Source of the DNA: Candidatus Dormiibacterota bacterium
GTDB taxonomy: Bacteria > Chloroflexota > Limnocylindria > Limnocylindrales > CSP1-4
NCBI GenBank assembly: GCA_035631615.1
Contig: DASQIK010000027.1
Span: 63,446-127,445 of the forward strand
Length of the DNA stretch: 64,000 nt
Direction of reading: 5' to 3'
A program made the position numbers and the translations under genes. Positions 910 through 32,878 of this stretch are shown here, in pieces. The notes under the pieces are model-generated. The model had not been told where the DNA came from. It did not search any database and worked only from the letters and a program-made list of their open reading frames with translations. The first letter of the stretch is position 1. Each line of letters starts with the position of its first letter.

Positions 910-3444
910 GTGCCGATCAGCCGAGGTTGGGAGGCGGCCGCAGCCGTGGCGGGTGGGCCATCCTCGCCAGCAGGGCTCGACGGCCTGACCTGGCTGCCGG
1001 CGCGGGTACCGGGGACCGCGGCGGGCGCCCTGCGCGACGCGAACCTGGAGCCGGGCGATCTCGATTCCCAGGACTGGTGGTTCCGAACGACCTTCGAAGC
1101 CGCTCCCGCCGCGGCTGGCGAGGAGCTCGTCCTGTGCGTCGGGGGCGTCGCAACCCTGGCCGACGTGTTCGTCAACGGCGAGCTGGTGCTCCGCAGCGAG
1201 TCGATGTTCGCGTCCCACACGATTGACATCGGATCTCGGGCGGCCGGGCGCAACGAGCTCGCGATCCACGTGCGCGCACTGCGACCGGAGCTCGCGACAC
1301 CACGGCGGCCGCGGCCGCGCTGGCGGACCCGGCTCGTTCCGGATAACAGCCTCCGCTGGTTCCGCACGATGCTGCTCGGGCGCATTCCCTCCTTCTCGCG
1401 CGGTCCGGCGGCGGTGGGCCCGTGGCGACCCGTGTGGCTCGAGCGCCGCCGAGGCCTCGTCGTCGAGGCGCTGGAGGTGCGGCCTCGGCTGGACGGCGCG
1501 GACGGCGTCCTGTCGGTTCGAGCGCACCTCCGGACACTGGGCGGGCCGCTTCCGGATGGGGTGGATCTCGAGGTCGACGGGCCATCCGGCCGCCATCGCG
1601 TTTCGCTCCGGATCGCGCCGGGCGACGGTGATCTGACCGCCGATGGCGAGCTCCGTATCCCCTCCGTCGAGCGTTGGTGGCCTCACACCCACGGCGCGCC
1701 TGCGATGCACGCCGTCCGGCTCCTGGTCGGGTCGCGGACGGACGCGACGATCGACGCGGGGCGCGTCGGCTTCCGATCGCTGGCGTCCGGCCCCGCGGGC
1801 CACGACATCGACCGGGACGGCTTGTCAGTCCATGTGAACGGTGTGCCGATCTTCGCGCGAGGCGCGCTCTGGATGCCCGTGGACATCGTGGGCCTCGCCC
1901 CGTCGGTCGCGGAGCTGCGCGAGGCACTCGAGACGGTCATCGCGGCGGGCATGAACATGCTTCGGGTGCCCGGCTTCGGACCATATGAGGGCGATGCCTT
2001 CCACGACCTGTGCGACGAGCTCGGCATCCTCGTCTGGCAGGACCTGATGTTCGCGAGCATGGACTACCCATTCGAGGACGAGGCGTTCGCGCGCATCGCC
2101 GCTGACGAGGTCCGCGATGTGACGCGGCGAATCGCCAGCCGGCCGAGCACCGCAGTGCTGTGCGGCAATAGCGAGGTCGAGCAGCAGGTCGCGATGCTCG
2201 GCCTCGACGTGGGTATGGCCCGCATCCCGTTCTTCGATTCCGTCGTGCCGGAGATCGCAGCGTCGGCCGGCCTTGACGCCGTGTACGTGCCCTCCTCGCC
2301 GTTCGGCGGCGAGCTGCCGATGCGGCCCGATCGTGGGATCACGAACTATTACGGGGTCGGTGGCTACTGGGGCCCGCTCTCCGACGCGCGAACCAGCGGT
2401 GTCCGTTTCGCGGCAGAATGCCTCGCGTTCGCCAACATCCCGGATGACGAGGCCCTGGCAGCGCTCGTGCCGGAGCCCCCGGGCGAGGCGTTCGTGCACC
2501 ATCCGCGGTGGAAGGCCGGCGTCACCCGCGACGCAGGAGCAAGCTGGGACTTCGACGACATGCGCGACCACTACCTCGGGGTGGTCTTCGGGGTCGATCC
2601 GCTCCAGCTCCGACACGACGACTGGGATCGCTATCTCGAGCTGTCGCGGGCCGTGACCGGCGAGGTCATGGCGAGCGTGTTCGGCGAATGGCGCCGTTCC
2701 GGATCCACGTGCCGCGGCGGCCTCATCCTGTGGCTGCGCGATCTTGTCGCCGGCGCGGGCTTCGGCGTGGTCGACAACCGCGGCCGACCAAAGACGCCGT
2801 ATCACCATCTCCGCCGGATCCTGGCGCCCGCCGCCATCTGGCTCGTGGACGAACGGACCGGCGGCGTGATCGCTCACGTGGCCAACGATGCGCCGGCGGC
2901 GCTCCCGGTTCGGCTTCGCGTGAGCCTGTACACGGACCAGGAGATCCCGGTCGGCAGCGGCGAGGAGCGACTCGAGGTGCCGCCGCATGGCAGCGCGACA
3001 CGCGACGTGGAGACCCTGATCGGGCACTTCGTCGATGCGGCGTGGGCCTACCGATTCGGTCCGCCCGCGCAGGACACGATCGTCGCGAGCCTCTTCCGCG
3101 ACGGCGAGCAGGGCGCTGAACTGCTCTCGCAGGCCTTCCATTTCCCGGCAGGCAGGCCAATGTCCGTCGAACCCGAGCGCAGGCTGGGACTCGCGGCGGC
3201 CATCGGCCCGGCTGCCGACGGGACCATTCGCCTGACCGTCGAAAGCCGTCGACTCGCGTACGGCGTGCGAGTCCACGTGCCGGGCTTCGCGCCATCGGAC
3301 GACGCATTCTCGGTCGAGCCGGGTGGTGCCCGCTCGATCGCGCTGCGTGCGATAGGAGATCGTGCCCGCCCATCCCATGGCTGGCTCACCGCGCTGAACC
3401 TGGCCGGCCAGGTGACGATCAAAGGCGCGATGCTGAACCCGTGA
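910..3444 (+). CDS. glycoside hydrolase family 2, beta-mannosidase-like
   Basis: Motifs 'WWFRTTF...LVLCVGGVATLADVFVNGE' and 'NMLRVPGFGPYEGDAFHDLCDELGILVWQDLMFA' are typical of GH2 beta-mannosidases. The ORF-finder start at 730 overlaps the upstream gene; a GTG at 910 is the likely real start (uncertain). Confidence 0.75.
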   Translation: MPISRGWEAAAAVAGGPSSPAGLDGLTWLPARVPGTAAGALRDANLEPGDLDSQDWWFRTTFEAAPAAAGEELVLCVGGVATLADVFVNGELVLRSESMFASHTIDIGSRAAGRNELAIHVRALRPELATPRRPRPRWRTRLVPDNSLRWFRTMLLGRIPSFSRGPAAVGPWRPVWLERRRGLVVEALEVRPRLDGADGVLSVRAHLRTLGGPLPDGVDLEVDGPSGRHRVSLRIAPGDGDLTADGELRIPSVERWWPHTHGAPAMHAVRLLVGSRTDATIDAGRVGFRSLASGPAGHDIDRDGLSVHVNGVPIFARGALWMPVDIVGLAPSVAELREALETVIAAGMNMLRVPGFGPYEGDAFHDLCDELGILVWQDLMFASMDYPFEDEAFARIAADEVRDVTRRIASRPSTAVLCGNSEVEQQVAMLGLDVGMARIPFFDSVVPEIAASAGLDAVYVPSSPFGGELPMRPDRGITNYYGVGGYWGPLSDARTSGVRFAAECLAFANIPDDEALAALVPEPPGEAFVHHPRWKAGVTRDAGASWDFDDMRDHYLGVVFGVDPLQLRHDDWDRYLELSRAVTGEVMASVFGEWRRSGSTCRGGLILWLRDLVAGAGFGVVDNRGRPKTPYHHLRRILAPAAIWLVDERTGGVIAHVANDAPAALPVRLRVSLYTDQEIPVGSGEERLEVPPHGSATRDVETLIGHFVDAAWAYRFGPPAQDTIVASLFRDGEQGAELLSQAFHFPAGRPMSVEPERRLGLAAAIGPAADGTIRLTVESRRLAYGVRVHVPGFAPSDDAFSVEPGGARSIALRAIGDRARPSHGWLTALNLAGQVTIKGAMLNP

Positions 3445-5303
3445 CCCTCCAGCTGCCGCCGCCCCGACCCCTCTATCTCCCCGCCGACCCCGACGTCGTC
3501 TTCGGCATGTTCCACGCTCCCCTCGACGAACCAGCGGCGAGAACCGCCGTCCTCCTCCTGCCGCCGTGGGGCTGGGACGAGATCGCCTCGTATCGGAGTC
3601 GGCGGGCGTGGGCCGAGCACCTCGCCGAACATCGGCACCCAACGCTCCGCATCGACTTCCCAGGGTCCGGCGATAGCGCCGGCGACCCCGGCGATCCCGC
3701 TCGCGTGGAGGCCTGGACGTCGGCGGTCGTCACGGCGGCGTCGTGGCTGGCAACGGCGACGCCCGCCGGTCGGGTGGCGGTCATCGGGCTCGGCCTCGGT
3801 GGGCTCATCGCCGGCCTCGCCATGGGCGAAGGCGCTCCGATCGATGAGCTCGTGCTCTGGGCCGCGCCAACGCATGGCCGGAGCTTCCTTCGAGAGCAGC
3901 GCGCGTTCGGAAAGCTGCAGCGCGACCGGTACGGCCCGACCGAGGGCGCCGACGAGGCGCTGCCCGACGGGTGGCTCGAGATCGGCGGTTTCGTGCAATC
4001 CGCCGAAACGATCGCTGCCGTCGAGCAGATCGACCTTCGCCAGATGCCGATCGGCCCGGTGCAGCGGGTGCTCCTGCTCGGGCGCGACGGGCTGCCCGTC
4101 GATGTCGGCCTGCAGCAGCGGCTTGCGGGGGCCGGCGCGGACGTGACAGTGGCACCCGGGGACGGCTGGGGCGCGATGTGCTTTCACCCGGAGCGCTACC
4201 AACCGCCACTCGATGTCTTCCGGCGTGTCTCCGACTGGCTCGGGGCGAGCGCGCGGCCCATGCCAAAGACCCGTCCGGCCCCCACGGCAGGGACTGGCTC
4301 GCCGGTTCGGCCGGAGGCCGCCCACGGCGACCTCTCGAGCCACGGCGTCGAGATCCGCGAGACGCCGATGGCAGGCGACGGCGCGCACGCCGGATTCTTC
4401 GCGATCGTCGCCGAGCGCGTTGCGCCATCGGCGAGGACGGGACCTGACCTGTGCGTCGTCTTCCTCAACGCGGGAGCGGTCCGGCGGATCGGCCCAAATC
4501 GCATGTGGGTGGAGGCATCCCGGCGCTGGGCAGCCAGGGGCATCCCAACCGCTCGCATGGATGTCGAGGGCATCGGCGACGCCGCCGGCGACGCGGCGAT
4601 GTACTACGACGTCGGGATGTTCTACACGCCCGCTCGCGAGATGCAGGTGACCGCGATCCTCGATGCGCTCGTGAGGCGCGGCCTTGGGCCGCGGTTCGTG
4701 CTGGTCGGTCTGTGCGCCGGCGCCTACTCGGCGTTCAATACCGCCGCCTCGGATGCGCGCGTCGTCGCGGCGCTCGCCGTCAACCCCAGGATTATGATCT
4801 GGGACCCGGCGATCATGGAGCGCCGCAATGCCTTCGCTGTCCGGGAGGTCCTCGAGCTGGGCTCGTGGCAGCGGATCCTGAACGGCGAAACCGCGCCCGC
4901 AAGGGTGCTCGAGATCGGCCGAGCCGCGGTCGCCGAGGCGCCACGGGCCGCGCTCCGGTACGCGAGCCGCCTTCGCGCCGGGAAGCGGCGCGATCCGTGG
5001 ACCGAGCAGCTGGAGCAACGGCTGGACACGTTGCGCGACGCGCGAACGCCGCTGGTGCTCGCGTTCTCCGGCGACGAGCCGATGCACGACGAGCTCAAGG
5101 CCGCGGGGATCCTCGATCGACTCGATCGCTGGCCCAACGTCGTGCTGACGGACCTGCCCGGCGACGACCACACGCTGCGACCGATTGCAGCCCAGCGCGC
5201 GTTCCATCGATTCATCGACGAGGAGCTCGAACGGCTTTCCGGCACGCCGGCGGGAGCGGGACACGGCGCCTCATCGATCGAGCTGGGCCGTCAGCCAGTC
5301 TGA
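3441..5303 (+). CDS. tandem alpha/beta-hydrolase fold protein (two hydrolase-like halves)
   Basis: Both halves show an alpha/beta-hydrolase architecture ('VLLLPPWGWDE...IGLGLGG' and 'VVFLNAGAVRR...LVGLCAGAYS'). The GTG start overlaps the upstream stop (GTGA). Confidence 0.55.
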   Translation: MTLQLPPPRPLYLPADPDVVFGMFHAPLDEPAARTAVLLLPPWGWDEIASYRSRRAWAEHLAEHRHPTLRIDFPGSGDSAGDPGDPARVEAWTSAVVTAASWLATATPAGRVAVIGLGLGGLIAGLAMGEGAPIDELVLWAAPTHGRSFLREQRAFGKLQRDRYGPTEGADEALPDGWLEIGGFVQSAETIAAVEQIDLRQMPIGPVQRVLLLGRDGLPVDVGLQQRLAGAGADVTVAPGDGWGAMCFHPERYQPPLDVFRRVSDWLGASARPMPKTRPAPTAGTGSPVRPEAAHGDLSSHGVEIRETPMAGDGAHAGFFAIVAERVAPSARTGPDLCVVFLNAGAVRRIGPNRMWVEASRRWAARGIPTARMDVEGIGDAAGDAAMYYDVGMFYTPAREMQVTAILDALVRRGLGPRFVLVGLCAGAYSAFNTAASDARVVAALAVNPRIMIWDPAIMERRNAFAVREVLELGSWQRILNGETAPARVLEIGRAAVAEAPRAALRYASRLRAGKRRDPWTEQLEQRLDTLRDARTPLVLAFSGDEPMHDELKAAGILDRLDRWPNVVLTDLPGDDHTLRPIAAQRAFHRFIDEELERLSGTPAGAGHGASSIELGRQPV

Positions 5304-8966: not shown

Positions 8967-9154
8967 GGTCGACGGACTCGGCGGGCAGCACCCGTGCGTC
9001 CCGTCGATGACGGTGGCGCCGACGCAGGACAGGCGAGTCGGAACGGCCGGACCTTCTGCCTACACGATCGGGTCCGATGGTCGGGCTGTTGCCAGAACGC
9101 CCCCGCCCATAAGGTCCAGTGAGCGTCGAGCGCACACCGGTCGGCGGCTTCAAC

Positions 9155-9232
9155 CGAAATAGCACACCCGTCGCGAGGCGGGGCCGCAAAGCCACGGGAC
9201 TCCCCGAGGAGTTAGCCGGGTTGCCGAAAGGG
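9155..9232 (+). ncRNA. candidate c-di-GMP-I (GEMM) riboswitch in the 5' leader of the GH16-like gene
   Basis: 'CCGAAAUAGCACACCCGUCGCGAGGCGGGGCCGCAAAGCCACGGGACUCCCCGAGGAGUUAGCCGGGUUGCCGAAAGGGAG' has a P1 hairpin CCCGUC-GCGA-GGCGGG (GNRA loop), then 'GCCGCAAAGCC' and a 3' 'AGCCGGGUUGCCGA'. These parallel Vibrio Vc2 'GGGCAAACC...GAAA...GGGACGCAAAGCC...AGCGGGGUUACCGA'. A near-identical copy sits at 29005..29085. Confidence 0.55.
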
Positions 9233-9240
9233 AGCATCGA

Positions 9241-10638
9241 ATGCCCTCTCTGCGCGCGCTTGCGCGGCCATTTCAAGGTCCGCGCCACGGTTCGACTCGA
9301 CACTCCCGGTTCGGCCGCGGCGCGGGGCGAATCCTCGCGGTCGCCGGCATGGCCCTGCTCGTGAGCCCGCTCACACTCCACGGCCCGCTGACCCCGACCC
9401 TGGCAATGACGCCCGGTTCGGCCGCCGCGGGAGTCCGGGTCCTGGTCACCGGGACGAACTTCGCGCAGCGAAGACTGGTCCAGCTCACCTGGGATGGATC
9501 GACCGGCGGCATGCCGACCCTGAACACCGGGCGAGATGGCCAGTTCGCCGCGACCATGATCGTCCCGTACACCGCGCCGGGGGCGCATACCCTTGGCGCG
9601 TTGATGGTCCAGACCAGGTCCGCCTTGCCAAGCACCGTGAGCCCCGCCTCCCAGATCGTCCTGGCGTCCGAGACGTTCACGATCACGACCGACGAGGCGT
9701 CTGCGGATCCAAGCGTGCTGCCCACCATCGACCCTGGCCCGACACCGGACCCGACCTTCATGCCGGATCCCACGGCGGCGCCGCTTCCCACGCCGACGCT
9801 CGAGCCGACCGTTACGCCCGCTCCAGATCCGACCGCCCGCCCGACGGCCGCGCCGACCGCCAGGCCGGCGCCCAAGCCCACCCCGCGTCCCACCCCCCGG
9901 CCCACGCCCAGGCCGACGCCTCCGCCGAGTGGCGGCGTCCCGCCGATGCCAGCGGCCGACCTCCTGCGGAAGAACTTCGCGGATGGGTCCCTGTGGCCGT
10001 TCCGCGTCGTCGACTACCCGAATGACCATCCGACCGACCCGATGTCCTGGGCGTGCGATTACAAGACCGACAGCAGCGTGGTCTCGGTCCATGATGGCTA
10101 CCTCCACCTGCGGGCATACCCGAAGGCCGGCGGCCGCTGGAACTGTGGCTTCGTCTCGACGGGCATGGACGCGAACGGACACGGCGCGTCGTTCAGCGTC
10201 AGGTACGGCTACGTGCAGTTCGCCGCCAAGATCAATGTCGGTCACGCAACGTGGCAGGCCCCGCTGTGGCTCCTCAACACGGTCACGGGCTGGAACGCGG
10301 CCGAGATCGACGTGGCCGAGGTCATCGGCGGCCGGCTGACGTACAACCTCCACGGCACGACCGAGCGCCGGGTGGGCTCGGTGGCGCCCCCGAGCAACAT
10401 GGCCTCCGCGTGGCACGTGTTCGGCGTTGCCAAGACGAGCAACCACATCACGTTCGTCATGGACGGCAGGGTCATCGGCCGCTGGTACGGCTCGATGACC
10501 GACCCGATGGCGCTGCTCGCCGACAGCAAGGTCGGCATCAAGTGGGACAACCTCTACCCGAACAGCACCACCCCGTCGCCCACGTGGGTCAAGCTCGCGT
10601 GGATCACCGTCTCCTCGCACATCCCCAGCGGCCTCTAG
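9241..10638 (+). CDS. secreted GH16-like (concanavalin-like glucanase) protein with Pro/Thr-rich linker
   Basis: RBS AAAGGGAG precedes the ATG. The N-terminal hydrophobic segment 'ILAVAGMALLVSPL' is followed by a ~70 aa PT-rich linker (PTPDPT...PRPTPRPTPRPTPPP). The C-terminal domain carries 'WQAPLWLLNTVTGWNAAEIDVAEV' (GH16 ExDxxE-like). It is paralogous to 29094..30428. Confidence 0.7.
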   Translation: MPSLRALARPFQGPRHGSTRHSRFGRGAGRILAVAGMALLVSPLTLHGPLTPTLAMTPGSAAAGVRVLVTGTNFAQRRLVQLTWDGSTGGMPTLNTGRDGQFAATMIVPYTAPGAHTLGALMVQTRSALPSTVSPASQIVLASETFTITTDEASADPSVLPTIDPGPTPDPTFMPDPTAAPLPTPTLEPTVTPAPDPTARPTAAPTARPAPKPTPRPTPRPTPRPTPPPSGGVPPMPAADLLRKNFADGSLWPFRVVDYPNDHPTDPMSWACDYKTDSSVVSVHDGYLHLRAYPKAGGRWNCGFVSTGMDANGHGASFSVRYGYVQFAAKINVGHATWQAPLWLLNTVTGWNAAEIDVAEVIGGRLTYNLHGTTERRVGSVAPPSNMASAWHVFGVAKTSNHITFVMDGRVIGRWYGSMTDPMALLADSKVGIKWDNLYPNSTTPSPTWVKLAWITVSSHIPSGL

Positions 10639-13485: not shown

Positions 13486-14205
13486 TCAGCTGGTGGCGCC
13501 CGTGCGCACGACCACCTCGCTGTTGCGCATCTCATAGGTGGTCGTGACGTCGGTCACGTGCTCGAGGATGAACGACAGGTCGTCGAGCTGCCCGGAGTCG
13601 CGCAGGTAGCGCGCGCTCTTGCCCTCCGTGATCGCGGCTGCCGGCGCGTCGCGCCAGGTGTCCACCACTCGGCGCGTCTCGTCATCGGCGTCATAGCCGG
13701 CGTCGATGAGCGGGCCGGCGATCCAGGCGCAGCAGAGCTGGTCCTCCTCGCGGAACTCGCCGCGTGTGCCGGCGCCGAGGAGCACGACCTCCGGGGGTCG
13801 GGCTCGCACGAGTTCCGCGGCCTGCGCCTCCCAGTTCCGCAGGCAGGCAAGGAACGTCGTCGGATGGGCCGCCGCCGCGGTCCGGAGGAGGCGCGTCCCC
13901 GAAGTCGACAGGAGAATCGCCGGGCGACTCGGGTCGCCGGCGCGAGCGATCGCCGCGGGGCTGTTGTTCAGGTCGAAGCCGTAGGGCATGTTCCCGCCGA
14001 GCTCCCCGACCAGCAGCGGGTGCTCGAGGCGAGCCTGGAGCTCTGCGACCTCGTCCAGGTTCGCGGCCACGAAGCACCGACGCCCACCCGCGACCGCGGT
14101 GATCGCCGTGGTCGTGGAGCGGATGACGTCGACGCCGACCACGACCGCGTCACGCGCGTAGCCGCGGAGCTCCGCGAGGTAGACCTCGATCCTGACGGAC
14201 GGCAT
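13486..14205 (-). CDS. comB: 2-phosphosulfolactate phosphatase (ComB family)
   Basis: 'VVVGVDVIRSTTTAITAVAGG' matches the ComB signature (VIDVLRAS/TT). Length 239 aa; sits 3 nt downstream of comA. Confidence 0.75.
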   Translation of the reverse strand: MPSVRIEVYLAELRGYARDAVVVGVDVIRSTTTAITAVAGGRRCFVAANLDEVAELQARLEHPLLVGELGGNMPYGFDLNNSPAAIARAGDPSRPAILLSTSGTRLLRTAAAAHPTTFLACLRNWEAQAAELVRARPPEVVLLGAGTRGEFREEDQLCCAWIAGPLIDAGYDADDETRRVVDTWRDAPAAAITEGKSARYLRDSGQLDDLSFILEHVTDVTTTYEMRNSEVVVRTGATS

Positions 14206-14208
14206 CCC

Positions 14209-15024
14209 TCAGGCGTCGCTCGGGCTGGGGGCAGGCGGCCGCAGGTTCGCGTGGCCGAACGCATCCGAGTGCAGCCCGCGCCGGTAGATCTCCACCCGCA
14301 GGAGCTCCTCGAGGCGCACGTTGCACAGCCGCACCTCCGGACCGAAGTGATTGAGCAGCGCGAACTGGCTGGGCTTGTTCGGGGCCTCGAACATCGTGAT
14401 CCCGAACCCGAACGCCTCGACGAAGCGCTCGGCCAGCGCCGTGTTGAGGTTGCCGTCCATGTCGAACAAGCCGACGCCCTTTGCGCTCTCGCGCGCCTCC
14501 ACGACCAGCTCCTTCGCGCCCGCATCCAACCAGCGTCTGCCCTGCTCGACCAGCTCCTCGGCGACGTCGTTTGTGAACGCGCCGCCGTGCTTCTTGCCGA
14601 GCTCGAACTGGAAGTCGAGGCCACGCGCCGCGGCCAGATGCGCCACCGTCTCGGGTGCGAGCCGCATGTCAGTGAAGCCCTCGCCACACTCGAACCTGTC
14701 GAACCCGATCTCGGCGCAGAGGTCCAGATATGCCTCGAGCTGGCCCTGTGCGACGGCCACCTCGAAGGGGCCACCACCGGTGACGGTGGGCACGCCGTGC
14801 TTCTTTGCCGCCGCGACTTTCGCCCGGGTTGCGCCCTCGTCAGCAATGATCCAGCACGCCATCGAGACCTTCAGGATCGAGATCAGGTGGTGGCTCTGCG
14901 CCAGATGGGATTCGAGGGTGACCGGGTCATAGCCCGGGTCGAACGGGCTTGTCGATGGCTCGAGGCTGCGCACGCCGATCGCGCGCAGGTAGCTGGCGAG
15001 GTAGCCATGGGCATCAGCCGTCAT
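14209..15024 (-). CDS. comA: (2R)-phospho-3-sulfolactate synthase (ComA family)
   Basis: 'AKELVVEARESAKGVGLFDMDGNLN...GITMFEAPNKPSQFALLNHFGPEVRLCNVRLEELLRVEIYRRGLHSDAFG' aligns with M. jannaschii ComA 'ADYVIIEGRESGKGIGLFDKEGKV...[48 protein letters not shown]'. Confidence 0.8.
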   Translation of the reverse strand: MTADAHGYLASYLRAIGVRSLEPSTSPFDPGYDPVTLESHLAQSHHLISILKVSMACWIIADEGATRAKVAAAKKHGVPTVTGGGPFEVAVAQGQLEAYLDLCAEIGFDRFECGEGFTDMRLAPETVAHLAAARGLDFQFELGKKHGGAFTNDVAEELVEQGRRWLDAGAKELVVEARESAKGVGLFDMDGNLNTALAERFVEAFGFGITMFEAPNKPSQFALLNHFGPEVRLCNVRLEELLRVEIYRRGLHSDAFGHANLRPPAPSPSDA

Positions 15025-16310
15025 TCCTCCCGTCCCTCCTGAACCCGCGGGCGTCGAGCCTGGATCTGTGGCCGAATGATTTCACGGTAGATGACCGGCA
15101 GCATCGGCAGCACCTCGAGGCCCATCGCGACTGCCACGCCGATCCCGAGGCCGCGGAGGCCGCCGGCGGTCGCGCCGAGGTATCCGCCGAGGATCTCGAT
15201 CAGGGCCCCAAGCGCAACGAGTCGAGTCGCGGACGAGAGGTGGCCTCGAACGCGCTGGATGGTGATGTACTGGCCCTTGAATACGCCGCCGATGACGGTC
15301 AGCGGCAGGGCGAAGAGGGCTTCCGTGCCCGCGTCCGAGTAGCCGCGTCCGAAGATTCGGAGGACGATCGGCCCGAGGATCCACAGCGCCACGGCACTGC
15401 CGACGCCGGTCACGATCGAGAGCCGGAGCGTCAGCCAGCCCCACCTGGCAAGGGATCCGGGCTCGCGCGACGCTTCCGCAAACAGGATCCACGTGAATGC
15501 CACCTGGACGAAGGCGGCGATGCCGACGAGCTGCCACGCCAGGAAGAAGCCGGCATTCGAGCTGGCCGAGAGCGCGGTGACTGCCACGATCGGCATCGCC
15601 CAGCCCGGAACCTGGATCGCGAGGTTCAGCATGTGATGCTGCAGCGACGCGAGCCACTGCTGGCCGAGAAACTCCCAGTGGAACGGGTAGGCGGCTCGCA
15701 GGTTGCCACGACGCCCCGCGATCAGGGCGAGGACGACGAGCGAGAGCCCCGTCGAGATCACCCACGGGGCGATCATGCCGAGCCCGGCCGAGGCGAGCGC
15801 GAACGACGCAAACATTGCGAGCAACAGGAGGCGCAGCAGGGCCGCGAGCACGTTCCGGAAGAGTTGCAGCCCACTGCGCAGGAGACCGATCAGCGCCTGG
15901 TCGAGGACGAGACTGGCGGCAGTCACGCTCGCGCCGAGGGTCACGAGGACGATGGTGATGAGCGACTCGCGAAGCGGCGCGAAGTCCACCGACAGCAGCG
16001 GCGCGATCAGGACGAATCCCAGGCCCAGGACCCCGCCGACGGCGGCCGAAGCGACGAGCGACGTCGTGACGATCGCGATCTCGCGCCCCGGATGTGCCGG
16101 AATCTCACGGATGAGCAGCGTGCCCAGGCCCATCGCCCCGACCGCACCGACCAGCGACATGCCCGAGGTGACGGCGGACGCGAAGCCGACATCGGACTGG
16201 CTGAAGGTCCGACTCGCGATCAACCAGAAGACGAACCCGACGCCAGCCGTGAGCAGCTGGCTGAGGACCAGCGACGTGCTCGATGCGAGAAAGTCACGGA
16301 CCCGCGGCAT
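15021..16310 (-). CDS. polysaccharide biosynthesis protein, Wzx-like flippase (MOP superfamily)
   Basis: 429 aa polytopic membrane protein from Met 'MPRVRDFLASS...'; the ORF-finder N-terminal extension was rejected. Its stop overlaps the comA ATG (ATGA). Confidence 0.7.
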   Translation of the reverse strand: MPRVRDFLASSTSLVLSQLLTAGVGFVFWLIASRTFSQSDVGFASAVTSGMSLVGAVGAMGLGTLLIREIPAHPGREIAIVTTSLVASAAVGGVLGLGFVLIAPLLSVDFAPLRESLITIVLVTLGASVTAASLVLDQALIGLLRSGLQLFRNVLAALLRLLLLAMFASFALASAGLGMIAPWVISTGLSLVVLALIAGRRGNLRAAYPFHWEFLGQQWLASLQHHMLNLAIQVPGWAMPIVAVTALSASSNAGFFLAWQLVGIAAFVQVAFTWILFAEASREPGSLARWGWLTLRLSIVTGVGSAVALWILGPIVLRIFGRGYSDAGTEALFALPLTVIGGVFKGQYITIQRVRGHLSSATRLVALGALIEILGGYLGATAGGLRGLGIGVAVAMGLEVLPMLPVIYREIIRPQIQARRPRVQEGREE

Positions 16311-26685: not shown

Positions 26686-27670
26686 GGCTCACCTTGTGAG
26701 CACAGCAGCTGCGATCCCCAGCAGCGTTTCGGTCGTCGTCTGCACCCACACCGTCGCGCGACGGCAGATCCTCGGGCACCTCATCGACTCGATCGCGGCC
26801 GGGACTGTCAAGCCCGTCGAAGTGGTGGTGGTCGTCGACCGCAATCGACCGCTCTTCGAGGCCCTGACCGCAGCGACCTGGCCGCTGTCGCTCCGTGTGA
26901 TCGAGAGCCGCGGGAGCGGTCTCTCGGCCGCCCGGAACGCCGGCTGGCAGACGGTGACCTCGCCACTCGTGGCGTTCATCGATGACGACGCGGTCGCGAC
27001 GCCCGGCTGGCTCGCGGAGCTGACCAACGCCGCGGATCGCCATGGTGCTGACGTCGTCGGTGGCGCCATCGAACCGCTGTGGAACGGCGACGCGCCGGGC
27101 TGGTACAGCCGATACCTCGGCTGGGTGGTCGGGTGCAGCTACGAGGGACTGCCCCGCGAGGCAGCACGCGTACGCAACGTGATCGGCTGCAACATGCTCT
27201 TCCGGCGCGAGCTCCTCGATCGGCTCGAAGGGTTCGACACCACCCTCGGCCGAACCAACAACGGACTCGCTGGTTGCGAGGAGACCGAGCTGTGCATCCG
27301 CGCGAATCGCGCCGGAGCCGCCGTGGTGCTGATCCCCGGGGCGCAGGTCTCGCAGGTCCTGCCGGCGGACCGCCGGCGCTTCCGTTACGCGGTGCGGCGC
27401 GGCTGGGACGAAGGCCGGTCGAAGCGGATGCTCGTTGCCATGCATGGACGGGTACTCGCCACCGAATCGAGCTATGCGCGAGCGCTCCTCCGCCAGGCCC
27501 TCGTCTGGGTCGGCACGGGAATCGTCGGGCGCCATGCATCGGACATCCGGCGCGCGGCCGCCCTGATCGCAGTGCTCACCAGCACGACGGCCTCATACCT
27601 CCTTCACGGGCTGCGCCGACCGACCCCGCGCGTCGTCGCACGGCCGCCCGTCACCGCGATCAACGGGTAA
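26678..27670 (+). CDS. glycosyltransferase family 2
   Basis: 'VSVVVCTHTVARRQ...VVVVVDRNRP...AFIDDDAVATPGWL' (GT2 DDD). Overlaps the upstream GT2 by 8 nt. Confidence 0.7.
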   Translation: MPEAHLVSTAAAIPSSVSVVVCTHTVARRQILGHLIDSIAAGTVKPVEVVVVVDRNRPLFEALTAATWPLSLRVIESRGSGLSAARNAGWQTVTSPLVAFIDDDAVATPGWLAELTNAADRHGADVVGGAIEPLWNGDAPGWYSRYLGWVVGCSYEGLPREAARVRNVIGCNMLFRRELLDRLEGFDTTLGRTNNGLAGCEETELCIRANRAGAAVVLIPGAQVSQVLPADRRRFRYAVRRGWDEGRSKRMLVAMHGRVLATESSYARALLRQALVWVGTGIVGRHASDIRRAAALIAVLTSTTASYLLHGLRRPTPRVVARPPVTAING

Positions 27671-28565
27671 CGCGAACCCAGTCGACCTGCAAGGTCGCGA
27701 CGGCTGGTGTCGTCGCGTCGGTAGCGCCGCAGAACCTGCCGCCAACCGCCTGGTCGAGGACGATCGCCATCTTCATGTCTGGCACATCCCCGTTGTTCGC
27801 GACGGTGAACGTGCTGGTCGCCAGGCCGTCGAAGTAGAACGTGACGTGGTCGGGGCGCCATTCAACCGAATAGACATGCCACGCTCCGGCCAGGTTGTCC
27901 GTGCGATACCCGATTGCGTAGCTCCGTGAACCGTCGGCCCTGTGGACGTAGTGGTGCAACAGGGTGATGTCGTTGCCGTTGTACATGCCTGCGTCGTTCG
28001 CGCAGACTTCCATCGCGTCGATCTCGGCCTGCTGGTGCAGGGCGTTCTGAGGCTGGGCGAGCCAGAACGCCGGCCACAGGCCGTTCCCCGCCTGGATCTT
28101 GATGCGCGCCGAGAAGACCCCGTATCGCTGCGTGAACGTCCCGACGGTATCGATGAGGCCGCCGATGTACCTGGAACCGGACCGGCGCGCCCTGATCGTG
28201 AGCAGGCCGTTTCCCAGAGAGATCTGCGACCGCGAAAAGGTCGTGGTGCCGAACCCGTCCCAGTGACGACCCCACACGGCCCCGAGGGTCTTGCCGTTGA
28301 ACTCGTCCCGAAAGGTGTAGACGGGCGGTGTCGGGATCGGGCTCGGCGCAATGGGGAGCGACGGCGGCGGATCGAACGTCGCCGCGGGCAGGCTCGATCT
28401 CGGCGACGGCACGACGCTCGTGACTGTCGTCGGGGATGGGACATAGCTCGCGAGGCAGGACGACGCGGCGCTGCTGGTGCACGGGCCGGGCCCGGTCTCG
28501 TTCAGGAGCACGACGACGAGCAGCACGGCCACGGCGAGTCCCGCCGCGATCAATCGGGTCTTCAT
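27660..28565 (-). CDS. secreted glycoside hydrolase family 16 (beta-glucanase/laminarinase-like)
   Basis: Start at internal Met 'MKTRLIAAGLAVAVLLVVVLL' (signal/TM). 'NGLWPAFWLAQPQNALHQQAEIDAMEV' gives the canonical GH16 GxWPAxW and ExDxxE motifs. The ORF-finder N-terminal extension was rejected. Confidence 0.75.
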   Translation of the reverse strand: MKTRLIAAGLAVAVLLVVVLLNETGPGPCTSSAASSCLASYVPSPTTVTSVVPSPRSSLPAATFDPPPSLPIAPSPIPTPPVYTFRDEFNGKTLGAVWGRHWDGFGTTTFSRSQISLGNGLLTIRARRSGSRYIGGLIDTVGTFTQRYGVFSARIKIQAGNGLWPAFWLAQPQNALHQQAEIDAMEVCANDAGMYNGNDITLLHHYVHRADGSRSYAIGYRTDNLAGAWHVYSVEWRPDHVTFYFDGLATSTFTVANNGDVPDMKMAIVLDQAVGGRFCGATDATTPAVATLQVDWVRVTR

Positions 28566-29004
28566 CGGCCTTTCGTGTGCTCGCTCAGGCGTTCCCCCGG
28601 CGGCCTGCAATCCTACTGGACGTGCGCATCGCCATCGGGCGAACGCGCAACGATGTGGCGCGTCCGCGCACTCTTGGGCTTCGGCAAGCTCAGCCTCGGG
28701 TCGTCGCGCCGCGGCCGTCGATCTCTCAACCAGGGCTTCTGCAAGCGTCGTTGCCGTCTCCGGAGACCCTGCGCCGCGACCCTGTGGGTCCGCCGGCGCA
28801 TGGATGGCCACCAGGCTGCACCTGCCATGAAGACAGGACCCGTAGGGTCCCCCGGAGTCTGGTGCGGTCTGCGATAGGCCGTTCTCTCCGCGGCAGAGGA
28901 CCATCGACCGGTACGTCGCGGAGATGAAGTCTCCTAGGGTCACGAAGGGACCTGGGGGCGCCCTCCGACGATGCGCGGCCAGCCAGCCTGGGCCCCCAAC
29001 TGGA

Positions 29005-29085
29005 CCGAAACGGCAAACCCGGGGCGACCCGGGGACGCAACGCCACGGGACTCCGCCGAGCGGAGCCAGCCGGGCTGCCGAAGGA
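29005..29085 (+). ncRNA. candidate c-di-GMP-I (GEMM) riboswitch, second copy
   Basis: 'CCGAAACGGCAAACCCGGGGCGACCCGGGGACGCAACGCCACGGGACUCCGCCGAGCGGAGCCAGCCGGGCUGCCGAAGGAG' has a perfect P1 hairpin CCCGGG-GCGA-CCCGGG. 'GGCAAACC', 'GGGACGCAACGCC' and 'AGCCGGGCUGCCGA' match GEMM-I conserved blocks. The RBS AGGAG is embedded in its 3' end. Confidence 0.6.
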
Positions 29086-29093
29086 GTGTTGAC

Positions 29094-30428
29094 GTGTCCT
29101 TTTGGGATGGGACTCGGTGGATCGAAGAGTCGAAGCCGACACGCACTCAGCCTGCCCCGCAGCCCTCGCGTCGAGGAACGACCGCGCGCCTCGGCGACCT
29201 GATCGCCACGACAGGCATGGTCGTCCTGCTGGGCGCGACCTTCATGCCCTTTGCAGCGGCCCAAGCGAGCGCGGCAAGCCTCTCGATCGCTCCGGCGAGC
29301 GGCCCGGCGGGTGCCACCGTCCAGGTCGTCGGCGCGGGCTTTGTCGCAGGAGCTCGTGCACAGCTGACGTGGGATGGCACCGCATCCGGGATGCCGGCGG
29401 TCAAGATCGGTGCAGCCGGCGACTTCCGGATCACGATCACGGTTCCTGCCGCACCGAGCGGTTCACACCACGTCGGTGCGGTGGACTCCGGGCTCCTGCC
29501 AAAGGGCCGTGCGAAGACGACGCAGCAGGTGACCCTCCTCGCAGTGGCGACGTTCGTCGAGGTCGGTGTCGGTCCCGCTCCGACTCCAACCAATCCGGCC
29601 CCTGCGCCGACCCCTCGGTCGACGGCGACGCCGCAATCGACGCCCAACCCAACCCCGACGCAGGCACCGACACCGCCGCCCGCCCCCACTGCGACGGCCG
29701 CCCCGACGGCGGCGCCGGGCACGGGTATCCCCGCGATGCCCCAGGCCGACCTGCTCCAGAAGGACTTCGCGGACGGCTCCCTGTGGCCGTTCAGAGTGAT
29801 CGACTACCCCAACAGCCATCCCGCCGACGCAATGAGCTATGCCTGTGACTACGGCCGGGACAGCAGCGTCGCGTCAGTCCACGACGGCTATCTCCAGCTG
29901 ACCGCCTACCCGCGTTCCGACGGGCGCTGGAACTGTGGCTTCGTGTCGACCGGCATGGACGGCAATGGCAATGGCGCATCGTTCAGCATGACCCACGGCT
30001 ACGTGCAGTTCGCGGCCCGGCTCAATGTCGGCTACGCCACCTGGCAGGCGCCGTTGTGGCTGCTCAACACCGTCACCGGGTGGAATTCCGCCGAAGTCGA
30101 CGTGGCCGAGGTGATGGCTGGAAGGCTGACATGCAACCTGCATGGGGTGGGCGACCTCCAGATCGCCTCGGTGGCGCCCTCGGCCGATCTCGCGACGACC
30201 TGGCACGTGTTCGGTGTCGCCAAGACCAGCGACCACATCACGTTCGTCATGGACGGCAAGATCCTTGGCCGGTGGAATGGTTCGATGCCGGACCCGCTGG
30301 CGCTCCTGGCGGACAGCAAGGTTGGCTACAAGTGGAACAGCGTGTATCCCGACGGCTCGACGCCGGACCCGACCTACGTGAAGATCGCCTGGGTGACCGT
30401 CGCCTCGAGCATCCCGAACGGCCTCTAG
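29094..30428 (+). CDS. secreted GH16-like protein with Pro/Thr-rich linker (paralog of 9241..10638)
   Basis: GTG start 7 nt after AGGAG. Signal 'LIATTGMVVLLGATFMPFAAAQASAASLS', a PT/PA-rich linker, and C-terminal 'WQAPLWLLNTVTGWNSAEVDVAEV'. The C-terminal domain is ~75% identical to the 9241 paralog. Confidence 0.7.
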   Translation: MSFWDGTRWIEESKPTRTQPAPQPSRRGTTARLGDLIATTGMVVLLGATFMPFAAAQASAASLSIAPASGPAGATVQVVGAGFVAGARAQLTWDGTASGMPAVKIGAAGDFRITITVPAAPSGSHHVGAVDSGLLPKGRAKTTQQVTLLAVATFVEVGVGPAPTPTNPAPAPTPRSTATPQSTPNPTPTQAPTPPPAPTATAAPTAAPGTGIPAMPQADLLQKDFADGSLWPFRVIDYPNSHPADAMSYACDYGRDSSVASVHDGYLQLTAYPRSDGRWNCGFVSTGMDGNGNGASFSMTHGYVQFAARLNVGYATWQAPLWLLNTVTGWNSAEVDVAEVMAGRLTCNLHGVGDLQIASVAPSADLATTWHVFGVAKTSDHITFVMDGKILGRWNGSMPDPLALLADSKVGYKWNSVYPDGSTPDPTYVKIAWVTVASSIPNGL

Positions 30429-30752
30429 CTCCGTCAGCGCGCCGTGACCCATCACGGCAGCGCGTGGAGTTGCGCCCAGACCGACCGAACGCCGGGTTCC
30501 GCCCGGCACGTTGCTGCGGCTGGACGAGCCAGCAGCCAGGATGTGCAGCGTTTGCGAGCGCGCCTACCCTGATTGGAGGCCGCTGATCGGGGCCTGTTCA
30601 ACAACGACGCCATCTGCTCCGGGGCCAGAGGTTCGTGACCCGAAGTTGATGTGATCGGGCTTTCGGATTCCCCGGCGGCGGCGCCCGACCGACGGGGCGC
30701 CAGCACCTACGCACGTCGACGGTTTCGACGACTGGATGAAGTGCAGGACCAG

Positions 30753-31306: not shown

Positions 31307-32878
31307 ATGACCGGCGCGATGGACCAATTCCCCGACCAGAATCCGAATCCCGTGCTGCGGATGCATGAGGACGGCACGCTGATCTACGCGAATCGCGCCG
31401 CGGCGCCGATCCTGCGTTCCTGGTCGACGAGCGTCGGCCAGCCGCTGGCCGAGTCGCTCGCGGCCCGGCTCCGCGCCGCCGCAGCCGAGGACCCGCCAGG
31501 GCGCGTCGAGGTCACCGAGGCCCGTCGGACCTTTGACGTCCTGGCCATCGCGCTGCCGGAGCTGGCTGCCTACAACCTGTACGGCACGGACATCACCGCG
31601 GCGAAGGTCGTCGAGCGCTTCCCGGATCGCAATCCGAACCCGGTGCTGCGGATGACGCCCGGCGGCGACCTCTGGTACGCGAACGAGGCGAGCCGGCCGA
31701 TCATCCGGGCCCTCGAGGTCCGCGTCGGGGATCCCCTGCCGCCGCGCCTGCTCGAGCAGCTCCGGGCCGCACTCCGGGACCCCTCGGCGCGGCCGCCCGA
31801 GGTCGCCGGCGAAGGCGGCCTCACCTTCCGGCTGAAGCCGGTCGAGATCCCCGAGTTCGAGTTCGTGAACCTGTACGGGACGGACATCACCGCGGAGCGC
31901 GCCATCGACCGGTTCCCGAACCAGAACCCGAACCCGGTGCTCCGCCTCTCGCGCCGGGGCCGGATGACCTACGCGAATCCCGCCAGCGCGCTCGTACGGC
32001 GCGCGCTCGAGGCCGAGGTCGGCGACGAGCTCCACCCGGCCCTGTTCGCTCGCCTCCTTGCGGCCTCCGAGCACCGGGCCGACCCGACGCTCGAGCTGGA
32101 GGCGGACGGCACGATCTATCGCATCCGCGTCGTCGCCGTCGCCGAGTTCGACTCGATCAACCTGTACGGCACCGACATCACCGCGGCGCGCGAGGTCGAG
32201 GAGCTCGGCGCGGCGAACGAGGCCCTGCTCCTGAACATCCTGCCGGCCTCGATCGCGGCCCGCCTCAGGGCGGGCGAAACCGTGATCGCCGACCGATTCG
32301 ACGACATGGCCGTCCTGTTCGCGGACGTCGTCGGGTTCACGGCGCTGTCATCGCGCCTCGAGCCGACCGACGTGGTCAGCCTGCTCAACGAGGTCTTCTC
32401 GACCTGCGACGAGCTGGCGGACGAGTACGGGCTGGAGAAGATCAAGACGGTCGGTGACGCGTACATGGTGGTCGGCGGGCTCCACCACGACGCGGGCGAC
32501 GGCAACGGCGATGGGAATGGCGGCGAGCACCGGCAGGCGACCCACGCCGAGGATGTCGCCGACATGGGTTTGGCCATGCTCGGCGAGCTGGCGCGGATTC
32601 GGAGCACGTCCGGGATCGGGCTCGAGGTTCGGGTCGGGATGCACGTGGGACCCGCCGTTGCGGGCGTGATCGGCCGCAGGAAGTTCATCTACGACGTGTG
32701 GGGCGACACGGTGAACACCGCGAGCCGAATGGAGTCCTCCGGCGTGCCCGGGCGCCTCCAGGTGACCCGCGAGACCCACGACCGGCTGGTCGGGTCGTTC
32801 GTCACGGAGTCGCGCGGCGTCATCGAGGTCAAGGGCAAGGGCGCGATCGAGACCTGGTTCGTCGTGCGCCGACGGTGA
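31307..32878 (+). CDS. class III adenylate/guanylate cyclase with three tandem N-terminal PAS-like repeats
   Basis: Three ~100-aa repeats each start 'FPDxNPNPVLR' and end 'NLYGTDITA'. The C-terminal cyclase domain shows 'VLFADVVGFTALS...KIKTVGDAYMVVGG...GPAVAGVIGRRKFIYDVWGDTVNTASRMES'. An alternative GTG start at 31280 overlaps the upstream stop. Confidence 0.75.
   Translation: MTGAMDQFPDQNPNPVLRMHEDGTLIYANRAAAPILRSWSTSVGQPLAESLAARLRAAAAEDPPGRVEVTEARRTFDVLAIALPELAAYNLYGTDITAAKVVERFPDRNPNPVLRMTPGGDLWYANEASRPIIRALEVRVGDPLPPRLLEQLRAALRDPSARPPEVAGEGGLTFRLKPVEIPEFEFVNLYGTDITAERAIDRFPNQNPNPVLRLSRRGRMTYANPASALVRRALEAEVGDELHPALFARLLAASEHRADPTLELEADGTIYRIRVVAVAEFDSINLYGTDITAAREVEELGAANEALLLNILPASIAARLRAGETVIADRFDDMAVLFADVVGFTALSSRLEPTDVVSLLNEVFSTCDELADEYGLEKIKTVGDAYMVVGGLHHDAGDGNGDGNGGEHRQATHAEDVADMGLAMLGELARIRSTSGIGLEVRVGMHVGPAVAGVIGRRKFIYDVWGDTVNTASRMESSGVPGRLQVTRETHDRLVGSFVTESRGVIEVKGKGAIETWFVVRRR

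Follow-up and report, generated by a model that had tools for sequence, protein, structure and literature searches.

Vc2, the archetype of the class I cyclic-di-GMP (c-di-GMP) riboswitches (GEMM-I, RF01051), lies upstream of tfoY in Vibrio cholerae. Its three-helix junction bears a GNRA-capped P2 and a P3 hairpin. Nucleotides G20 and C92 each recognize one guanine of c-di-GMP, and a G20A substitution lets Vc2 accept cGAMP (PMC6140456). Class I switches operate in both directions: Vc1 is an ON switch, while Vc2 is a translational OFF switch in which sequestration of the ribosome-binding site (RBS) is coupled to P1 (bioRxiv 10.1101/617340). Riboswitches that naturally carry A20 (GEMM-Ib) are either cGAMP-selective or bispecific, and an A20G change converts one of them to c-di-GMP selectivity (PMC6456294). 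Two of these, the 3′3′-cGAMP riboswitches Gs1761 and Gm0970 of Geobacter, have the same fold and belong to the same Rfam family as the leaders described below.

These leaders come from a Dormibacterota/Chloroflexota MAG of an uncultured soil lineage; in the literature, no paper connecting Dormibacter with riboswitches was found. The window, that is, the whole 64,000-nt stretch of DNA analysed, contains two of them, referred to here as copy 1 and copy 2, each upstream of a gene for a GH16-like hydrolase. This report centers on copy 2 and uses copy 1 and more distant relatives for comparison.

Identity and anatomy of the copy 2 aptamer

When all 4227 Rfam families were run at their gathering scores over the complete 64-kb window, exactly two matches resulted, both to RF01051. 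Copy 2 matches at 29002-29082 on the forward strand with 49.8 bits against a gathering score of 35 (E=9.9e-07), and its alignment spans the full model, positions 1-87 (cmscan). Copy 1, the paralogous riboswitch, matches at 9151-9228 on the same strand (62.4 bits, E=8e-10). With a purpose-built covariance model, R1, the scores are 65.6 bits for copy 2 and 86.2 for copy 1. A preliminary description of this DNA, which quoted the forward-strand RNA string at 29012-29086, had proposed a GEMM-type leader here, and the RF01051 run bears this out. Copy 2 is a class I c-di-GMP riboswitch in the 5′-UTR of a GH16-like gene. It is an ordinary, Rfam-detectable member of its family; what is new is the host lineage and the gene context.

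Two variant models of the same clan were also considered. Copy 2 shares with the UAU and GGC variants a compact GC-rich architecture and a short P3, and when matches are ranked by E-value the best clan model is one or the other of these, at 48.6-63.2 bits, below their own gathering scores (65.9 and 59). Membership in c-di-GMP-I-UAU (RF03168) was rejected at 48.6 bits against 65.9, with G and C at the defining positions. Membership in c-di-GMP-I-GGC (RF03167) was likewise rejected, the score being below 59 and the model absent from the gathering-mode scan. RF01051 is the correct family for copy 2 because the variant models stay below their own gathering scores and the UAU-defining U20 and U92 are absent.

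The 5′ strand of P1 falls within 28997-29007 (+). Its core, P1a, consists of C29006-G29007 paired with C29079-G29080, a CG/CG arrangement that is invariant in 19 of 19 seed sequences; C29005, GGAC at 29002-29005 and CAAC at 28997-29000 are candidate extensions on the same strand. J1/2 ends at G29012 (+), model position 11 of the RF01051 alignment and the equivalent of Vc2 G20. P2 (29013-29038, +) begins with the outer pairs G29013-C29038 and C29014-G29037, continues through a 3x3 internal loop and ends in a perfect 6-bp inner stem, CCCGGG 29018-29023 with CCCGGG 29028-29033, capped by GCGA at 29024-29027. The preliminary description had already recognized this GCGA-capped helix at 29018-29033, which is now termed P2 following the nomenclature of the crystal structure; the same helix is reportedly the P1 of the original GEMM paper.

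A29039 (+) follows P2 and aligns with Vc2 A47, which intercalates between the ligand bases in the crystal structure. The P3 hairpin (29041-29076, +) is short and without the 11-nt tetraloop receptor. According to the cmscan alignment it contains two non-standard pairs, C29041.U29076 and A29050.C29066, and its consensus receptor positions are deleted, although the GCGA tetraloop is present; a helical minor-groove receptor for this tetraloop is possible. On the 3′ side of the junction (29078-29080, +), C29078 aligns with Vc2 C92, the Watson-Crick partner of the second ligand guanine (PMC6140456), and C29079-G29080 closes P1a. The ligand contacts of copy 2 are thus canonical (G20, A47 and C92 at g29012, a29039 and c29078), and every ligand-contact and junction nucleotide is intact in the RF01051 alignment. 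The Shine-Dalgarno (SD) sequence GGAG at 29083-29086 (+) lies 3 nt past P1a and 7 nt ahead of the GTG at 29094, with 11 nt between the end of the aptamer and the GTG. The embedded AGGAG of the preliminary description is located at 29082-29086.

The likeness to Vc2 therefore extends over the three-helix junction, the GNRA-capped P2, the P3 hairpin and the identical G20, A47 and C92. Vc2 also has the 5′-UTR site and the likely P1-coupled translational control predicted for copy 2. The two differ in their tetraloop, which is GCGA rather than GAAA in copy 2, and in P3, which is short in copy 2 and has no 11-nt receptor positions. They differ as well in the placement of the RBS, about 100 nt downstream in Vc2 and 3 nt past P1a for the copy 2 SD, and in the host, here an uncultured Dormibacterota/Chloroflexota lineage.

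Comparative support for the helices

Pairwise alignment puts the aptamers of copies 1 and 2 at 80% identity, so that the term near-identical, used in the preliminary description, was an overstatement. The pattern of a conserved core and tail between diverged flanks does hold: 'CCACGGGACUCC' and 'AGCCGGG(U/C)UGCCGAA' are common to both copies. The P2 differences between them are fully compensatory, with two double changes (U-G to G-C and C-G to G-C) that keep the perfect 6-bp stem. These compensatory changes, together with the presence of the leader before homologous genes (see below), support the earlier suggestion of purifying selection on an RNA. The two copies also differ at several positions that are near-invariant elsewhere in the subfamily.

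In all, 112 leaders, comprising 106 distinct sequences, were aligned with a covariance model in which P1 is represented. Across the distinct set, 93.8% of helix cells are paired, compared with 81.3% in shuffles and 30-46% with slid partners, in an alignment that is itself fitted to the model, whose collecting pattern fixes much of P2 and whose sequences are interrelated. Two-sided changes occur at 17 of the 27 pairs and in 345 cells of these 106 leaders. P2 cells are 99% paired, and P3 is 95-96% paired with double changes at 7 pairs. Pairing reaches 77% in the outer part of P1, where a position can show as many as six pair types. Covariation thus supports every helix, including P1, whose 3′ strand carries the SD. 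As for the P3 irregularities of copy 2, one of its non-standard pairs sits at a position unpaired in just 2 of the 106 leaders, 11 of 104 leaders share the C.U variant at the foot of P3, and additional G-C pairs around the A.C mismatch make the hairpin longer.

Covariation also links model positions 15 and 34 (Vc2 A24 and A43), formally unpaired nucleotides on opposite sides of the P2 internal loop. The combinations are A/A (71 leaders), A/G (13) and C/C (32), and a C at 34 never occurs unless 15 is also C. The corresponding residues in the window are a29016 and a29035 in copy 2 and c9165 and c9184 in copy 1. This pattern suggests a non-canonical pair or a tertiary contact between the two.

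The regulated genes and their neighborhood

The gene downstream of copy 2 (29094-30428, +) starts with GTG and encodes 444 amino acids. It matches PF00722 with 24.4 bits against a gathering score of 22. Its product is laid out as an N-terminal VSFWDGTRWIEE peptide, short and predicted to be cytoplasmic, followed by a transmembrane (TM) or signal anchor, an Ig-like domain, a Pro/Thr linker and the GH16-like domain, in which the catalytic E-x-D-x-x-E motif reads E-V-D-V-A-E (AEVDVAEV). The product is a predicted membrane-anchored or secreted GH16-like glycan hydrolase. Like the GH16 endo-beta-glucanases (laminarinases and lichenases), it has the PF00722 domain and the E-x-D-x-x-E motif, but it is very divergent, at 24 bits, and among PDB sequences its catalytic domain finds laminarinases as best matches with a marginal E of about 0.04. 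It further differs from these enzymes in adding the FWDG peptide, TM anchor, Ig-like domain and Pro/Thr linker. An identical protein (100%) at NCBI, from a Candidatus Dormibacteraeota MAG, is annotated as a 'glycoside hydrolase family 16 protein' and starts 41 codons downstream of GTG 29094, which omits the FWDG peptide. The start at GTG 29094 is supported by the conservation of this peptide with synonymous codon variation.

The paralogous GH16-like gene downstream of copy 1 (9241-10638, +) starts with ATG and encodes a protein of 465 amino acids. Identity between the two products is 53% overall and 72.6% within the catalytic domain, in agreement with the paralogy first proposed for them. Their genes stand on either side of a polysaccharide-biosynthesis cluster (about 8-28 kb of the window) with an epimerase, a beta-helix protein, an ATP-grasp enzyme, ComA/ComB, PGA_cap, an amidohydrolase, two GT4, two GT2 and a canonical GH16. 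This GH16, of 301 amino acids (27660-28565 on the reverse strand, 74 bits), is divergently oriented to copy 2 across a 436-nt intergenic region, within which no promoter-like site was detected.

Other features of the neighborhood are of separate interest. ComA (phosphosulfolactate synthase) and ComB (2-phosphosulfolactate phosphatase), at 13486-15081 (-), lie among the glycosyltransferases, a hint that some uncommon sulfonated building block is involved. Two genes downstream of the copy 2 gene, a class III adenylate/guanylate cyclase (31307-32878, +) contains three repeated PAS-like units, each with 'FPDxNPNPVLR ... NLYGTDIT'. No GGDEF, EAL or CD-NTase gene was found among the approximately 30 window ORFs scanned.

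The leader and the FWDG module across relatives

The N-terminal peptide of the copy 2 gene product belongs to a conserved module: x(1-2)FWDGTRWI(D/E)E, then a TM anchor, an Ig-like domain and a Pro/Thr linker. The peptide is encoded at 29094-29130 of the window and at about 2995-3040 in loci L003-L008, and it occurs in proteins P0006-P0070. It is shared by proteins with differing C-terminal domains (GH16, GH5, GH26, beta-helix and alginate lyase), and neither Pfam nor NCBIfam holds a curated model of it.

This FWDG module travels with the riboswitch. Full-length homologues from a protein search have a GEMM-I-clan match directly upstream in seven of seven loci. A protein-based genome scan with the N-terminal peptide added seven MAG loci (Chloroflexota, Limnocylindrales or Dormibacteria-type), six of which have an RF01051 match (54-60 bits) whose end is 15-20 nt upstream of the homologous start. 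A leader is therefore present before the 7/7 fetched homologues and in 6/7 of the other related loci. The SD-adjacent 5′-UTR arrangement of copy 2 recurs in 13 related loci. The leader is not universal in the FWDG family. L002, a Chloroflexia MAG locus with a 30%-identical FWDG-type GH16-like homologue, has lost it: no riboswitch was found at about 2880-3000, even at E<=0.01.

Leaders of the subtype with the GCGA tetraloop are present on at least 120 soil and sediment metagenome contigs collected by a degenerate core pattern. Downstream of the G20 leaders nearest to copy 2 lie genes for small membrane proteins that match nothing in Pfam. Elsewhere, an independent G20 leader from this subtype (L011, 3946-4030) precedes a canonical GH16 (4080-4997, 61 bits), so that the association with GH16 recurs outside the FWDG family. 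A 2.3-kb metagenome contig, L047, contains four riboswitch matches (369-466, 483-567, 1180-1264 and 2252-2336), including one directly tandem pair.

The specificity nucleotide and the origin of the copy 2 leader

Copy 1 has an A (a9161) at the Vc2-G20 position of the RF01051 alignment. The same A20 is found in all seven homologue leaders and throughout the leaders of L003-L008 and L129-L135; of this group only copy 2 has G20. Among 122 distinct leaders, which are not independent sequences, 16 of 20 A20 leaders precede FWDG-type ORFs as against 9 of 102 others (Fisher p=1.7e-10). The diagnostic A20 of GEMM-Ib is thus shared by copy 1 and all homologue leaders and is absent from copy 2 (G29012). 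A further difference lies in the regulated step and genes: the Geobacter GEMM-Ib riboswitches control transcription of cytochrome and pilus genes (PMC6456294), whereas the present leaders are SD-adjacent and stand before glycanases. Because G20 occupies the ligand-reading position, c-di-GMP should be the ligand of copy 2.

The preliminary description held that the element had duplicated together with its gene. Both paralogues and the wider family do carry the leader, and inheritance through duplication is the simplest account, since all examined family members except L002 have it. Simple co-duplication is less certain, as the copy 2 leader lies closer to a different G20 subclass than to copy 1. 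This leader is 88% identical to G20 leaders with the same P2 (L071 and L083) and 80% identical to copy 1, which for its part is 89-90% identical to the leaders of the homologues; the A20 type is otherwise very uniform, and copy 2 departs from it. The catalytic domain of the copy 2 gene product groups with the MPSLR-type, copy-1-like clade, at 73-78% identity versus 61-66% to other FWDG-type proteins. The copy 2 leader has undergone either unusually fast divergence with compensatory changes or conversion from another leader.

A bolder reading of these data, for which we have low confidence, is that the paralogous leaders are wired to different cyclic dinucleotides. Copy 1 and the whole FWDG regulon of secreted glycanases in Dormibacterota and Limnocylindria, with A20, might respond to 3′3′-cGAMP or to both cGAMP and c-di-GMP, and copy 2, with G20, to c-di-GMP only. 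It would follow, just as tentatively, that copy 2 acquired G20 after the duplication, either through point mutation or through conversion from a different class of leader.

Mode and direction of control

Scans of 28400-30700 found no intrinsic terminator and no sigma-70-type promoter. The missing terminator makes termination control unlikely, and as P1 runs straight into the SD, control should act on translation initiation. Translational control, already suspected in the preliminary description, is accordingly probable, with the SD 7 nt from the GTG and the terminator scan empty. Copy 2 is most likely a translational c-di-GMP switch, and we put the probability of the overall explanation, a c-di-GMP-I riboswitch with translational control of the GH16-like gene, at roughly 0.8.

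The arrangement of P1 in the subfamily suggests how such a switch would work. In FWDG-type leaders P1 is composed of CG/CG, a 2-nt AA bulge and CCA/UGG, often extended to CUCCA/UGGAG, and its 3′ strand in this class, CG-AA-(U)GGAG, is the SD itself. More generally, the 5′ flank is complementary to the SD-bearing tail: in 54 leaders with an SD directly after the aptamer, the longest helix averages 4.72 bp, compared with 4.26 when flanks are swapped and 4.18 when they are shuffled, a mean that 0 of 1000 controls attain. The effect, though genuine, is small. For copy 1, a candidate anti-SD, GCUUC at 9147-9151, pairs with the SD GGAGC at 9231-9235 (+), and a G-to-A change in homologues turns a U.G of this helix into a U-A pair. 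In nearest-neighbor modeling, enforcing the aptamer takes the unpaired probability of the copy 1 SD from 0.26 down to 0.07. As modeled, and by analogy with the Vc2 precedent, the copy 1 pairing is the geometry of a ligand-stabilized, SD-sequestering OFF switch.

Copy 2 is less clear-cut. It is without the CUCCA/UGGAG anti-SD of its relatives, and past P1a only C29005-G29083 pairs; the other SD bases lie opposite a purine-rich 4x4 loop, in which tandem G.A pairs are possible, and L010 is arranged alike. RNAfold predicts a P1 extension between GGAC 29002-29005 and GUCC 29096-29099 that overlaps the start codon. In the same nearest-neighbor modeling the copy 2 SD is about 0.76 unpaired either way (0.76 to 0.77 upon enforcing the aptamer). 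For both leaders, single-sequence minimum free energy (MFE) folds recover P2 and P3 and miss the native junction, and the folding energies are no better than those of dinucleotide shuffles (z = +1.0 and +0.8), leaving no thermodynamic signal in what is a 70% GC setting.

In the mechanism we propose, c-di-GMP would bind the copy 2 aptamer through G20, A47 and C92. Binding would lock P1 and its extension, which in the subfamily is an anti-SD:SD helix. The locked P1 would hide the ribosome-binding region and lower translation initiation, making the leader an OFF switch through which c-di-GMP would tune the production of glycanases that flank a polysaccharide-biosynthesis cluster. We lean slightly towards this OFF direction, which is least secure for copy 2 itself, as its anti-SD is eroded.

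Alternative readings

The strongest competitor keeps the same c-di-GMP-I riboswitch and reverses its sign. As an ON switch, it would hold the start region in an alternative fold when no ligand is bound, its ligand-driven folding would free the SD, and the hydrolase would be made together with the polysaccharide at high c-di-GMP. The unconstrained copy 2 MFE is in keeping with this, as it pairs CGGCA 29011-29015 with UGUUG 29087-29091 and C29006-G29007 with C29093-G29094, pairings that disrupt the binding pocket and occlude the start codon, whereas the SD is open in the aptamer-enforced fold. Vc1 provides the precedent of a class I ON switch (bioRxiv 10.1101/617340), and the two genes flank a polysaccharide-synthesis cluster. 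The biology of such clusters points the same way: hydrolases that process exopolysaccharides (EPS) are often co-expressed with their synthesis (PslG, BcsZ and AlgL-type enzymes), which favors the ON direction. These alternative pairings are, however, single-sequence predictions without comparative support, and both copy 1 and the wider family have their SD as the 3′ strand of a ligand-stabilized P1, the classic OFF geometry. We regard the ON direction as possible but on balance doubtful. The eroded anti-SD can also be taken as decay, copy 2 then being a non-functional or decaying relic whose P1 and expression platform are decoupled from the ligand. Copy 2 is indeed the lower-scoring of the two (49.8 versus 62.4 bits with RF01051, 65.6 versus 86.2 with R1), the modeled accessibility of its SD does not respond to aptamer folding, two P3 pairs are non-standard, one of them at the position unpaired in only 2 of 106 leaders, and L002 shows that a related FWDG-type GH16-like gene can lose its leader altogether. 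Against this, the ligand-contact and junction nucleotides are all intact, the P2 differences from copy 1 are fully compensatory with a perfect 6-bp helix, P3 is extended by G-C pairs around its A.C mismatch, the C.U variant at its base is present in 11 of 104 other leaders and the SD/start geometry is preserved. Decay is an improbable account of this combination.

Two further readings concern the ligand and the coding status of the segment. Copy 2 could sense 3′3′-cGAMP or another cyclic dinucleotide instead of c-di-GMP, given that its paralogue and every homologue leader carry the GEMM-Ib signature A20 and that the subfamily scores near the variant models RF03167 and RF03168. Copy 2 itself, however, has G20 and C92; G20 discriminates against cGAMP in Vc2, and A20G brings c-di-GMP selectivity (PMC6140456, PMC6456294). 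With U20 and U92 absent as well, and neither variant model reaching its own gathering score, this reading is very improbable. The possibility that the conserved segment is protein-coding, as an N-terminal extension of the downstream ORF, arises from an in-frame ATG at 28971 that gives an uninterrupted ORF of 485 amino acids. It was rejected on the spacing, the in-frame stops and the compensatory changes: aptamer-to-start distances in relatives are 74-93 nt and not multiples of three, 11 of 24 leaders have in-frame stops just upstream, and the changes compensate each other within RNA helices instead of being synonymous. Both the SD and the conserved start codon, moreover, lie past the aptamer, and we give this possibility next to no weight. 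The reading that we prefer remains the translational c-di-GMP switch.

Implications

Taken alone, copy 2 is a correct and routine annotation within reach of Rfam-based pipelines, and its value is contextual. What may prove of most interest around it is the A20/G20 contrast between the paralogues and the putative riboswitch-linked FWDG glycanase module. The context is an uncultured soil lineage with cyclic-dinucleotide riboswitches on the ribosome-binding sites of a secreted glycan-degrading enzyme family, two members of which flank an exopolysaccharide cluster. The paralogue pair offers a compact, testable case for the question of whether riboswitch-based cGAMP signaling occurs outside Geobacter. 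If the two leaders do read different ligands, such signaling would extend beyond Geobacter to Chloroflexota-related soil bacteria, and the pair would represent a natural regulatory subfunctionalization through a single specificity nucleotide.
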